From IMG/VR virus record IMGVR_UViG_2681813269_000005: a stretch of 5,287 nt of DNA; one strand, 5' to 3'. This DNA is from a virus (lineage: Duplodnaviria > Heunggongvirae > Uroviricota > Caudoviricetes). Every line of letters starts with the position of its first letter. Within the stretch, counting starts at the first letter, position 1. The notes beneath the pieces were generated by a model. The model had not been told where the DNA came from, did not search any database, and saw only the letters and a program-made list of their open reading frames with translations. Both the position numbers and the translations under genes were made by a program. Below, in pieces: positions 1 to 5,239 of this stretch.

Positions 1-432
1 CAGAAAAGCACACCCAAAGCCGAATGCGCCGGGTATCGCCAGACGGCCTTTTGTCCGGTCGTAAATGTCGCTCTGTGCTTCCATCGTGGCCGCACTTTTC
101 AGCCCCAGATTATCCCGGGACTTCTGTTGTGCCTTTTCGCCTGCTGCTGCGATTTCAGACAGATGGTTAGCCGTTTTCAGAGTGCCGGTCAGCGCAGCAT
201 CAATGTCATTTTTGGCCTGCTCTGCTGCGCGGGCATAACCTGCGGCTGCCGCCACATCCTGCGCCGTCTGCTGTGCGTTTCCGGCTGCGGCCCCGGCGCT
301 CTGCTGCGCCTGCGCCACCATTTCCTCAAAGCGTTTGACGACATCCGGTTTCAGGTCGCCCTCATCAGGAGCAATCAGAAAGTCATTCAGCGTGCCGGGC
401 TTTGAGTCGTCGTATACAGCAATGTCGCCAAC
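1..432. repeat. direct repeat copy 1 (432 bp, identical to 1909-2340); homology continues at ~74% identity over 433-564
   Basis: Line-by-line comparison of 1-432 with 1909-2340 found no mismatch. 433-564 vs 2341-2472 shows about 34 mismatches in 132 nt with no indels. Confidence 0.95.
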
Positions 433-564
433 GTTGTACTCGTTGTGCCAGCCCGGTTTCAGATACACACCATATTTTCCAGTCCGCGCATGGAAACAGT
501 ATTCACCATCGTTTCCTGTCATCACATCAGCAACAGTGTGCATCACCACTTCCGGGGTGTTTAC
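1..564 (-). pseudogene. 5'-truncated side tail fibre gene (paralog A of the 1285..2553 gene); first ~27 codons and start codon missing, remainder continues beyond window start
   Basis: Minus-strand frame is open across 1..564 and in register with the 1285..2553 gene. 1-432 is identical to 1909-2340; 433-564 encodes VNTPEVVMHTVADVMTGNDGEYCFHARTGKYGVYLKPGWHNEYNVGDI, a diverged version of residues 28-75 of the full copy. Upstream of 564 the frame runs into the IS66 end and hits a stop at 607-609 with no ATG/GTG/TTG in between. Confidence 0.6.
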
Positions 565-900
565 CGTAAGCGTGCAGCAAGAACCGTATTGACGGGAATG
601 TGTTATTCAGTCGGCAGTGCTACGCGCCAGGGGAGCAGTTCGCCGACCCGGTTTATCGGCCAGTCGGCTATGACGTCAAGGACATAGCGGAGGTAGCTTT
701 CTGGCTCCACTCCGTTCAGTTTGCACGTCCCGATCAGGCTGTACAGCAGCGCTCCCCGCTCTCCTCCATGATCCGAACCGAAGAACAGGTAGTTTTTGCG
801 GCCCAGACTGACCATCCGCAACGCATTTTCAGCGATGTTATTGTCCGCCTCAGCCCAGCCATCATCTGCATAGTACGTCAGCGCCGGCCACTGGTTCAGG
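565..900 (-). mobile_element. IS66-family insertion sequence remnant: 3' end of tnpC (last ~98 codons) plus the terminal repeat end; inner boundary approximate
   Basis: C-terminal 98 aa of ORF 603..1334 (LNQWPALTYYADDGWAEADNNIAENALRMVSLGRKNYLFFGSDHGGERGALLYSLIGTCKLNGVEPESYLRYVLDVIADWPINRVGELLPWRVALPTE) match my recollection of the conserved IS66-family TnpC C-terminus. GTAAGCG at 565-571 lies 38 bp past the stop and exactly where homology to the other tail fibre copy ends; as I recall, IS66-family ends begin GTAA. Inner boundary (~900-940) is estimated by eye. Confidence 0.6.
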
Positions 901-1274
901 GCAGTTTGTGCTGTGACAGATTTTGCCAGCATGACTACCGGGGACAGGCGGCCCAGTGAGTTGGGGCCAGCATTCCAGATACGACCGTTCCATTCAAACG
1001 TGAACGGCTTCGCCTCCTGTTCTGTGCGCCATGCTTCAATTTCCTGACGTCTGGCCTCTCTGGCCGCTTCCAGCATTTCTGGTGTCACAGTGAATGGGGC
1101 TATCTCACCCCATTTGCCACTTTGCAGTTCCTGCCAGATTCGCTGACCCGTCGGTGCGACATCATCAGCGGTGGCTGTGTAGGGGACTGCCTGGTCCCTG
1201 TCGTCAAAAAAAACGTCACAGTCTACTGCGCCACTTTCGGTATAACGGGGATTAATGATTTTTTTAATTTCCAC
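603..1274 (-). CDS. chimeric ORF: tail-fibre assembly chaperone-like N-terminal part (DUF4376-like motif) fused in frame to the C-terminal fragment of an IS66-family TnpC transposase; probably non-functional
   Basis: Six-frame ORF 603..1334. N-terminal ~145 aa contain VTPEMLEAAREARRQEIEAW...PFTFEWNGRIWNAGPNSLGRL, which resembles DUF4376-type tail fibre chaperones and sits directly after a tail fibre gene. I prefer the GTG start at 1272-1274, preceded by GAGGAA (1281-1286) with a 6-nt spacer, over the ATG at 1334, which overlaps the upstream gene by 50 nt and has no Shine-Dalgarno. Confidence 0.55.
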   Translation of the reverse strand: MEIKKIINPRYTESGAVDCDVFFDDRDQAVPYTATADDVAPTGQRIWQELQSGKWGEIAPFTVTPEMLEAAREARRQEIEAWRTEQEAKPFTFEWNGRIWNAGPNSLGRLSPVVMLAKSVTAQTALNQWPALTYYADDGWAEADNNIAENALRMVSLGRKNYLFFGSDHGGERGALLYSLIGTCKLNGVEPESYLRYVLDVIADWPINRVGELLPWRVALPTE

Positions 1275-1284
1275 GGTGCATTCC

Positions 1285-3122: not shown

Positions 3123-3124
3123 TG

Positions 3125-4165
3125 TTAAATACTCGCTACGTTATACCAGGTGCCATTAATCAGTTTTTGCAGCGGTCGGTAATACACGCCGTTGACGTTA
3201 TCCGCTGAGTTACGGCCGGTATCCGATATCGATATCCCTGACAGCCCGTGTCCCGAAGGTGAGCGAAATGTCCACGAAACGGTGTTACTGCCGGGGGTGT
3301 AATACATTTCATAACCATACCGCACATCCTGCACGCCACCATTTCGCTGCTGGTAACGGGCATCAAAGTTTCCGTAGTCTGACGGTGTTACCCGTCCTGT
3401 AACGTTTACAGCTTTATTACTCTGGATACTGCCACTCTGAAAACGCAACACATGCACGCTATTGGCATAAACATCCAGCAGGCCATCACCATTCTGTTTG
3501 AATCCGGTGTCATTATCACCAAGAACAATTGAATTCCCCCCCAGGGCGTTCTGAACGCCGATACCCAGCGCACCATTGACCTGCGAACCACCGCCAACAG
3601 ACACTTTATGCGACATGGATATTTCACCCGTCCGCAGATTAATGGTGAACGGGCGCAGGGGACCAATATCGCCATTTTCCCCCTGACCTTCACTGGTGGG
3701 AATAAGGTGCAGGCACTCTTCCGAACGACGAAAAATCAGGCCAAAAGCTTCGTTGAAAATCCTCAGCGCATTAACACCACGGATTTTCAGCTCTCCGGTC
3801 ATGGTGTCGCCATCACGCTGAACGGCATTTTTTGCCTTATCCACCGTGGGTTTTAATCCGAGGTTTTCAACAGCCTCATCCCTGTCTTCCACATCCGAAA
3901 GGTTATTTTTTATCAGCAATGCCTCTTCGTTAATTGCACCGCCCACCAGCAATAATATAGCCTTATATAGCTGGTCGTGTTCTTCTTTATTCAGTTCTAT
4001 CCCGGCCTTCTCAATGACACCACAGATTTCCTCCTGAATGGCATTCCACATGGCACTGTTCAGCCAGGTAGCAAGACGTCCTGTGCGAAGATTTCCGTCA
4101 GTAAATCCGTTCTTACCCGGACCAAACTTATCTTTTACCGCAGTCAGCGTATCAATCCTGTGCAT
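3125..4165 (-). CDS. tail fibre protein with Mu S / P2 H-like C-terminal receptor-binding region
   Basis: C-terminal motifs AVQRDGDTMTGEL, NALGGNSIVLGDNDTGFKQNGDGLLDVYANS, YGNFDARY and YRPLQKLINGTWYNVASI match what I recall of the P2 H / Mu S / lambda Stf distal region (NALGGSSIVLGDNDTGFKQNGDGILDVYANS...FRPIQKYINGTWYNVAQV). Start placed at ATG 4163-4165 (MHRIDT...), preceded by GAGGA with a 5-nt spacer; the longest ORF starts at 4177 (MRMKMHRIDT) without a Shine-Dalgarno. TAA at 3125-3127. Confidence 0.8.
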   Translation of the reverse strand: MHRIDTLTAVKDKFGPGKNGFTDGNLRTGRLATWLNSAMWNAIQEEICGVIEKAGIELNKEEHDQLYKAILLLVGGAINEEALLIKNNLSDVEDRDEAVENLGLKPTVDKAKNAVQRDGDTMTGELKIRGVNALRIFNEAFGLIFRRSEECLHLIPTSEGQGENGDIGPLRPFTINLRTGEISMSHKVSVGGGSQVNGALGIGVQNALGGNSIVLGDNDTGFKQNGDGLLDVYANSVHVLRFQSGSIQSNKAVNVTGRVTPSDYGNFDARYQQRNGGVQDVRYGYEMYYTPGSNTVSWTFRSPSGHGLSGISISDTGRNSADNVNGVYYRPLQKLINGTWYNVASI

Positions 4166-4742
4166 CTTCATCCTCATCTGGATAGGAAAATAAAACGACG
4201 GTGTGTGACGGACATAATTTATTAATCACGCACTCCGCAACCGTATCCCCCCACGTCCGGATCGGTGTGTTGCAGGCGTCCGTGCATGTCTGCCACTGAG
4301 CACCGGCATCCATCGGCAACGTCACACGCCAGAAATAACGCCAGCGATCTCCCCATTCCGGATCGGGGCTTGCATCCAAGTGCTGGAACTGTTCGATCGT
4401 TACGCCGGTATATCCCAGCGCCTCAAGCTGATCCAGGAAGAACTGCTCATTTATGCCACCAGCCACATTGGCTTTTGCTTCAAGACGTTGCTGACGCTGG
4501 CGTAATGTCTGGGTTCCGACAGGGGAACAGGAATCAGGTAAACCATACAATTCTTCATAACGTTCAATCAGCTCTGTGGACTGACCGGGATCGATTTCAA
4601 TCACCAGTTCATCAGCCCGCTGGTGAACACGCACAAGCGATGGTGCCAGACCGTCAAGTACACCGTCGGTATCTGACCATGCAGGCCCCGGCGGCATCAG
4701 TCCGTACAGCAGCTTTGTATAATCATCCTGTAACGAATCCAT
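4152..4742 (-). CDS. DUF2313 / YmfQ / Mu gp48-like phage baseplate protein
   Basis: 196-aa ORF with LLYGLMPPGPAWS near the N-terminus and ECVINKLCPSHTVVLFSY near the C-terminus, the pattern I associate with YmfQ/Mu gp48-family proteins. It sits between a J-like gene and a tail fibre gene as in Mu-type modules. Its ATG overlaps the upstream stop (TAATG, 4740-4744). Confidence 0.7.
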   Translation of the reverse strand: MDSLQDDYTKLLYGLMPPGPAWSDTDGVLDGLAPSLVRVHQRADELVIEIDPGQSTELIERYEELYGLPDSCSPVGTQTLRQRQQRLEAKANVAGGINEQFFLDQLEALGYTGVTIEQFQHLDASPDPEWGDRWRYFWRVTLPMDAGAQWQTCTDACNTPIRTWGDTVAECVINKLCPSHTVVLFSYPDEDEDAQD

Positions 4743-5239
4743 TATTTACTCCTTGCCGGGTCATAAGCCTGCCAGGTGATCTCGCCGAGCACCGGAAGCT
4801 CGGTCTCCCCCAGGTCAATATCCGATGAAGGGACGATTAACCGGTGGGCCACTTCACCAGCAGACAAACTGATGGCCTCACTGATTCTGGACAGATACAT
4901 ACGCCCCTCTGGCACACCATCCCGTAACATCAGTGCATTCAGCTCTGCTTTTATTGCAGTCCTGATCTGCGGTGTGTCTTTCGATAATGCAATCGTCATC
5001 GGGATGACTTTTTCTGTGGCACCGAATACATACAATCCGCTTCCGGCAACAGGTGCCAGAGGAAGGATGTGGTCCCTGACTGCGTTAATCACGCTTTCAT
5101 CCGGGGCCGGGCGTTCCGGATCGTTTGTCGCCACCATCACGCCAACCGTTCCAGTGCCTTTCCAGTGTCTGAAAGTCCATGCACGGTTAATACCCTGAAC
5201 TTCTTTCGCCCAGATAACATAATCAGGGTCTGCGCCCCC
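4742..5239 (-). pseudogene. baseplate J-like (Mu gp47 / P2 J family) gene, C-terminal ~165 codons only; 5' part displaced by the IS1 insertion at 5240
   Basis: Frame is open from 5254 down to the TAA at 4742-4744 with no start codon before the GTG at 5140. Translation from the junction reads GGADPDYVIWAKEVQGINRAWTFRHWKGTGTVGVMVATNDPERPAP..., resembling the C-terminal region of baseplate J proteins as I recall them. The frame continues 5 codons into IS1 and terminates at TAA 5255-5257 inside the IS1 terminal repeat. Confidence 0.65.

Follow-up and report, generated by a model that had tools for sequence, protein, structure and literature searches.

Introduction

In the Stx2e phage phiP27 (NC_003356), Pfam assigns gene L52 to Baseplate_J, L53 to Mu_Gp48, L54 to a tail fibre, L55 to Caudo_TAP, L56 to a second fibre with a phage_tail_N domain and L57 to DUF4376. 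The six genes lie on a single strand with almost no spacers, and attR follows L57. A Mu gp47/gp48-type block followed by a fibre gene and a Caudo_TAP-type assembly gene is shared with Mu (G), P1 (C) and e14 (P), and YmfQ is named after the e14 gene. Prophage regions of the phiP27 type have already been listed in Shigella sonnei by PHAST-based work (PMC5447701). Here we describe a stretch of 5,287 nucleotides (nt), virus record IMGVR_UViG_2681813269_000005, which is called the window below. Pfam and PHROGs scans gave, on its minus strand, Baseplate_J, Mu_Gp48, a fibre, Caudo_TAP, a phage_tail_N fibre and DUF4376, the same order and strand of six domains as in phiP27 L52-L57. A fragment of an IS66-family insertion sequence (IS) and part of another phage_tail_N fibre gene follow.

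A sequence-only reading had described the window as three fibre genes in a row, a chimera of a Mu-type and a lambda-type fibre system brought together by recombination, with a lesion in every unit. We found instead that the window is, with high confidence, a scaffold-derived contig of an S. sonnei draft assembly in which two different prophage remnants were glued together at base 903. Bases 904-5287 are the last part, with tail genes, of a decayed phiP27-like myovirus prophage that lies next to ssrA. Bases 1-902 come from a separate ipaH island beside purL and mltF, in which an IS66 remnant abuts a paralogous side tail fibre (Stf) gene at its nt 81.

Results

The window corresponds to the entire draft contig CXNR01000237.1 (L015; 5287 nt) of S. 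sonnei assembly GCA_001256515.1. When the reverse complement of this record was compared with the window, the sole mismatch was at one base:

903, no strand: scaffold joint, N in the public record and A in the window

Scaffolding programs leave a mark of this kind where they set two contigs side by side. Because base 903 is N in the record, no sequence was ever obtained for the junction of the DUF4376 and IS66 fragments. The window reads CACAAAC on the DUF4376 side and GCCCTGAACC beyond the joint. The placeholder A creates an in-frame DUF4376-IS66 chimeric open reading frame (ORF) of 241/243 amino acids (aa), which is named 'prophage tail protein [Shigella sonnei]' in the sources. The 241-aa form occurred in exactly one contig of the whole collection, CXNR01000237.1, and in no other assembly; the 243-aa form, which starts two codons earlier, gave no match in an exact look-up. 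Scans did not find the IS66/Stf junction in the one-genome-per-species contigs, nor either junction in the viral contigs. An 'extra A' inserted at an illegitimate recombination joint was considered for base 903 and rejected, the A being a placeholder for N.

Both sides of the joint were recovered from finished S. sonnei genomes, at two loci. Bases 904-5287 showed 99.9% identity to eight finished-genome loci that hold the phiP27-like remnant adjacent to ssrA. Bases 1-902 matched exactly in five finished genomes (L027-L030 and L032), and there the IS66 sequence continues upstream. The features next to the joint are as follows:

1-565, minus strand: StfB', a second phage_tail_N fibre gene, which begins at its nt 81 (Pfam phage_tail_N, E=8e-52, profile positions 28-132)
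566-902, minus strand: 3' end of an ISEc22-like member of the IS66 family, with the C-terminus of TnpC and the right terminal repeat (99.7% to ISEc22)
904-1334, minus strand: 5' 431 nt of a DUF4376 chaperone-like gene, ending at the scaffold joint and not at an IS

On the IS66 side, the joint falls inside the element, whose sequence runs on unbroken in the finished genomes. An IS66 insertion into the DUF4376 gene had been proposed as the lesion that truncates this chaperone; no terminal repeat was found abutting the gene in continuous sequence. All eight ssrA-adjacent loci have an intact DUF4376 gene, annotated with 205-207 aa or with an internal start; smpB comes next in 6/8. The part of the gene in the window differs from finished genomes at two bases only (962 and 987); the gene there reaches 207 aa, with ssrA next. 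This adjacency was established on the finished genomes, the window ending before ssrA, and in L012 the transfer-messenger RNA gene (ssrA) lies ~200 nt past DUF4376, before smpB. A paralogue switch inside the contig, considered on account of bases 962 and 987, was dropped, as sister drafts show the 962T allele at the ssrA locus too.

At the other locus, no base separates Stf nt 81 from the IS66 terminal repeat, which ends in ...GCACGCTTAC (the complement of GTAAGCGTGC), in the window as in the finished genomes. The IS66 remnant truncates StfB' at the purL island, a locus different from that of StfA, the phage_tail_N fibre on the right side of the joint. The other half of the Stf gene, needed to recognise a target-site duplication of this insertion, is absent. 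Since the second Stf copy and IS66 are joined to the rest only via the N, two of the four lesions listed in the sequence-only reading (the truncated chaperone and the 5'-truncated Stf copy) were misplaced. The second Stf copy in the row and the IS66-truncated chaperone are scaffolding artefacts; the row of three genes itself, like that chaperone, was not observed as sequence.

The relation between the two Stf genes was then compared along their length. The relevant features on the ssrA side are:

1285-2553, minus strand: StfA, the second fibre, an intact ORF of 422 aa (Pfam phage_tail_N, PF08400, E=2e-63)
1909-2308, minus strand: StfA copy of a perfect repeat (400/400 to bases 1-400)

Bases 1-400 and 1909-2308 form a direct repeat in the window that is longer than the sequence-only reading had seen, and in another draft contig (L017) a further 127/127 bases are identical. 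The predicted StfB' product, composed of its own N-terminal part and the rest of StfA, has 388 aa and occurs exactly in S. sonnei as protein P0163, which equals StfA from residue 85 to the end. Over window 904-2472 the paralogues show 34 differences, the same number as was counted in the divergent 5' part of Stf. On this count the ssrA-remnant and purL-island modules appear identical between Stf nt 246 and DUF4376 nt 431 (L027 10001-11548), a stretch of ~1.4 kb that lies upstream of the joint. The first ~165 nt retained in the truncated Stf are ~79% identical to StfA, and beyond the joint the two DUF4376 genes show 3 differences in the 16 bases after CACAAAC. Such identity within S. sonnei suggests that the copies underwent gene conversion or arose recently from a common source. 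The exact StfA protein was present in 723 collection blocks, and 8/8 of the places listed have the ssrA-remnant tail genes upstream. In GCA_040189005.1 one contig holds both genes, StfA at ~1.531 Mb (minus strand) and the truncated Stf at ~1.622 Mb (plus strand), so that the real copies lie in opposite orientation at a distance of ~91 kb. Inverted copies at this distance suggest a substrate for a large inversion.

Other drafts break or misjoin at the same loci. In 6/6 sister contigs read (L021-L026), a single N stands right after the same ...CACAAAC and is followed by the correct DUF4376 continuation, ssrA and smpB. This join loses 16 nt of the DUF4376 gene, and its translation is a 202-aa protein, P0043, found in 21 contigs. 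P0043 resembles a 5-residue deletion variant yet is an assembly product; a '15-nt deletion' as the source of the 202-aa variant was rejected in favour of translation of the N-join. Contig L017 (FTYG01000246.1) links the same two loci elsewhere: StfA runs to window 2106, then come 31 nt and an N, and IS66 follows from window 788. The 31-nt insert (3225-3256 region) matches the inside of an IS3-family element. The L017 join yields a 221-aa Stf-IS66 fusion (P0023), which was deposited as 'tail fiber protein'. Two distinct joints between the same repeat-sharing loci, each with an N, argue for scaffolding error rather than biology. Short-read contigs would break at base 903, where the paralogues diverge. 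We infer that ~1.4 kb of identity between the modules would cause such contigs to end at the point of divergence, and that the scaffolder would then attach the wrong neighbour.

It is also conceivable that a private, real rearrangement fused DUF4376 at the ssrA remnant with the interior of the purL-island IS66, producing a true tandem in which the N hides a few bases. IS elements and rearrangements abound in S. sonnei genomes, scaffolder placement normally requires some read-pair links, and the parental sequences share an 8-nt match, CGCATATG, at the joint. We nevertheless regard this as very unlikely. No sequence spans the joint, the whole collection has the chimeric ORF in one contig only, and the break falls at the exact point where sister assemblies break with an N. 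The IS66 side of the joint is internal and continuous in the finished genomes. No simple deletion or crossover would yield a tandem from parental loci that are inverted and 91 kb apart, and the L017 draft joins the same loci at other points with junk sequence.

Several points do weigh against the scaffolding explanation. The comparison covered assembled sequences, and a private rearrangement of the isolate may formally lie behind the N. The scaffolder's choice of neighbour would have to be as we suppose, as it was deduced rather than reconstructed. The 8-nt match between the true DUF4376 and IS66 sequences near the joint could hint at microhomology, and the product expected from it differs from the contig. 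Finally, phiP27-type virions would, judging by gene content, carry both fibres. With these points taken into account, the gluing of two remnants by a scaffolder keeps the confidence stated above.

The arrangement of the remaining genes was compared with known phages. All sizeable genes of the window are on the minus strand, and the block upstream of StfA comprises:

2577-3122, minus strand: Caudo_TAP tail fibre assembly gene, inactivated (Pfam Caudo_TAP, E=7e-21; TAA at codon 17, 3074-3072)
3125-4165, minus strand: first tail fibre, an intact ORF of 346 aa (phrog_6859 tail fiber, E=2e-209)
4152-4742, minus strand: YmfQ/Mu gp48 baseplate wedge protein, 196 aa, intact (Pfam Phage_Mu_Gp48, E=2e-25)
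4742-5239, minus strand: C-terminal fragment of baseplate J/gp47, 165 codons (Pfam Baseplate_J, E=1e-24, profile positions 132-255 of 255)
5240-5287, minus strand: IS1 end, 48 nt of terminal inverted repeat at the contig end (the plus strand reads GGTGATGCTGCCAACTTACTGATTTAGTG)

The earlier domain assignments, namely Mu-type J and gp48, a fibre with Caudo_TAP, and an Stf-type fibre with a different class of chaperone (DUF4376), were borne out by Pfam and PHROGs. The DNA of phiP27 is 80-93% identical to window 2186-5239 over the aligned stretches. At the protein level, identity was 98% for YmfQ (L53), 84% for the first fibre (L54) and 74% for DUF4376. StfA was only 45% identical overall to L56 (422 versus 490 aa), the receptor-binding part being different. 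An uninterrupted prophage with head and tail genes in Escherichia coli C311 has the same six-domain order and ends at ssrA like the S. sonnei remnant; its 346-aa fibre matches the first fibre of the window over the full length with 90% identity. The same annotation series was found in E. coli FDAARGOS_944 and many other E. coli genomes. The order from J to DUF4376 is, judging by these sequence comparisons, the norm of a known phage family and already known, not a local chimera.

The first fibre has 346 aa in both the window and E. coli C311, against 332 aa in phiP27 and 402 aa for the enteroinvasive E. coli FDAARGOS_944. In the last of these, ~170 additional nt lie in the middle of the gene (L001 14500-14694 versus window 3412-3432), and the first fibre looks as if it has a variable central segment.

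A genuine three-fibre locus, assembled by stepwise recombination of Mu-type and lambda-type systems and open to fibre switching through its direct repeats, would fit the domains, which are as described, and the perfect 400-nt direct repeat of the window. The evidence above speaks otherwise: a Mu-type block with an Stf-type fibre and DUF4376 is standard in phiP27 and in the uninterrupted E. coli prophage, so that this gene order, without the second Stf, is normal in an intact arrangement. Although the individual pieces of the three-fibre row were described accurately, its contiguity across base 903 was not sequenced and the row spans two loci. The second Stf copy, said to follow directly on the first, was placed there by the single-N join, and a tandem duplication of the fibre finds no support because the two copies are linked only through that N. 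Direct repeats give no basis for fibre switching by recombination here, because the true copies stand ~91 kb from each other in inverted orientation. In addition, the prophage is dead, its J gene split by IS1 and its assembly gene stopped by a nonsense codon, and there would be no virion to benefit. A genuine three-fibre locus is thus extremely improbable and, as far as sequence data allow, already refuted.

Two of the proposed lesions proved to be real, and the description of the locus as a decayed, cryptic prophage remnant held up. Intact J homologues have 360 aa. The sequence at 5240-5287 is what we take to be an IS1 end, and in finished genomes L007, L008 and L010 the IS1 genes InsA/InsB lie between a J N-terminal part (224 aa) and a C-terminal part (131-137 aa). 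The IS1 insertion that splits the baseplate J gene is a real lesion common to finished genomes. In the assembly gene, the codon at 3074-3072 is TAA in the window and CAA in the intact homologues L001 and L002; this change from CAA to TAA is likewise common to finished genomes. S. sonnei thus differs from phiP27 in carrying a decayed copy.

Could the nonsense codon and the IS1 insertion be sequencing or assembly errors, the ssrA-adjacent prophage being really intact? The window is, after all, a short-read draft with at least one scaffolding error. We give this almost no credence: among the finished S. sonnei genomes that could be compared base by base at the TAA site, 0/6 differ from the window, the IS1 genes stand between the J halves in several finished genomes, and another IS1 lies by the tape-measure gene. 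The ORFs left intact at the ssrA locus are YmfQ, the first fibre, StfA and, in finished genomes, DUF4376. The module would be unable to build a tail and would have no phage function, being non-functional debris. In the finished S. sonnei genomes L006 and L010 (12152-21269), another prophage with a tyrosine integrase, an S24 repressor and other phage genes occupies the place after DUF4376 where others have smpB.

The purL island was examined in the finished genomes, where the order is several IS elements, IS66 TnpB, a TnpC remnant, Stf (388 aa), DUF4376 (205 aa), a convergent ipaH, a serine recombinase fragment, mltF and purL. In L027 the IS66 remnant (8985-9980) is composite: the last 459 nt are 99.6% ISEc22-like, the TnpB region upstream is at 81%, and TnpC is reduced to a 152-aa ORF. 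A protein search with the second Stf fragment returned P0031, from another genome in which the Stf N-terminus is without the IS66 interruption. Beyond ipaH, L027 14238-14636 holds a 132-aa ORF with a Resolvase domain, which is most like large serine recombinases (XisF/Ccr type), with no match reaching the curated cut-offs. Going by these matches, the ORF probably represents part of a serine integrase; a Pin-type invertase in the purL island, considered for this ORF, was unsupported.

Discussion

The findings above carry a caution for readings of draft contigs: one placeholder base hid a scaffold joint, and from this came a seeming row of three fibres, a chaperone apparently truncated by an IS and a chimeric ORF in frame. 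What the locus really holds is ordinary: S. sonnei has, next to ssrA, a decayed prophage of the phiP27 type, in which the layout with two fibres and two chaperones is the norm of the family. In intact phages of the phiP27 type, gene content suggests two receptor-binding fibres, each with its own chaperone. The first would attach via the gp47/gp48 wedge and fold with the Caudo_TAP chaperone, and the second, which has a lambda-Stf-type anchor domain, would fold with the DUF4376 chaperone.

The wider family of Stf-DUF4376 modules may have a further history. The spacer from DUF4376 to the convergent ipaH is ~180 nt, the same in five loci (L001 11628-11808, L003 9613-9793, L013 8628-8808, L014 6626-6806 and L027 11741-11921). 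The tail modules upstream differ among these loci and include a Mu-type gp47/gp48 baseplate, a DUF2612-type baseplate and, in enteroinvasive E. coli, lambda J-Lom-Stf-Tfa; L027 has only IS elements. Tentatively, and at less than even confidence, we suggest that the block of Caudo_TAP, Stf (phage_tail_N) and DUF4376 with convergent ipaH might be a mobile cassette, moved or copied by recombination between unrelated prophage tails, with copies kept identical in one genome by gene conversion. This suggestion concerns the wider family and not the three-fibre row of the window, which is regarded as an artefact.

Comparison with the ipaH islands of Shigella and enteroinvasive E. coli places the two parts of the window apart. 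Bases 1-902 come from such an island, with Stf, DUF4376 and convergent ipaH, and in enteroinvasive E. coli the same Stf-DUF4376 module precedes ipaH. The ssrA-adjacent remnant that makes up most of the window is without ipaH; unlike in the ipaH islands, ssrA comes directly after DUF4376. Effector genes have been described past the tail fibre genes at prophage ends (PMC3530523).

The locus also differs from the fibre-switching systems of Mu (G), P1 (C) and e14 (P). The earlier statement that no DNA invertase or crossover site is visible was upheld: no Gin/Pin-type invertase gene was found in the window, nor in the 10 kb to each side of the locus in eight finished genomes. There was no inverted second fibre/assembly pair, and no long inverted repeats were found in the window. 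A search for cix-like crossover sites gave one AAACCNNGGTTT-like match with a mismatch; at least one such match occurred in 31/200 shuffles, so this is not above chance.

For the DUF4376 protein, the closest described counterpart is gp27 of the Alteromonas myovirus V22, a DUF4376-containing protein that is encoded after a fibre gene and represents a new type of fibre chaperone (PMC7289586). Its likeness to the S. sonnei protein is one of domain and gene position. By analogy in these two respects, the enterobacterial DUF4376 protein may be a fibre chaperone as well.

The sole wider point is the use of a lambda-Stf-type anchor domain on a Mu-type contractile-tail baseplate, which is a question for intact phiP27-like phages rather than for this remnant. 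Residues 1-110 of StfA are ~45% identical to lambda Stf and match Pfam phage_tail_N, whereas the rest of StfA is unrelated to lambda Stf. In contrast to lambda, StfA follows a contractile-tail Mu-type baseplate block and not J-lom. The gene downstream of StfA is DUF4376 and not, as with lambda Tfa, Caudo_TAP, which here lies upstream and goes with the first fibre.

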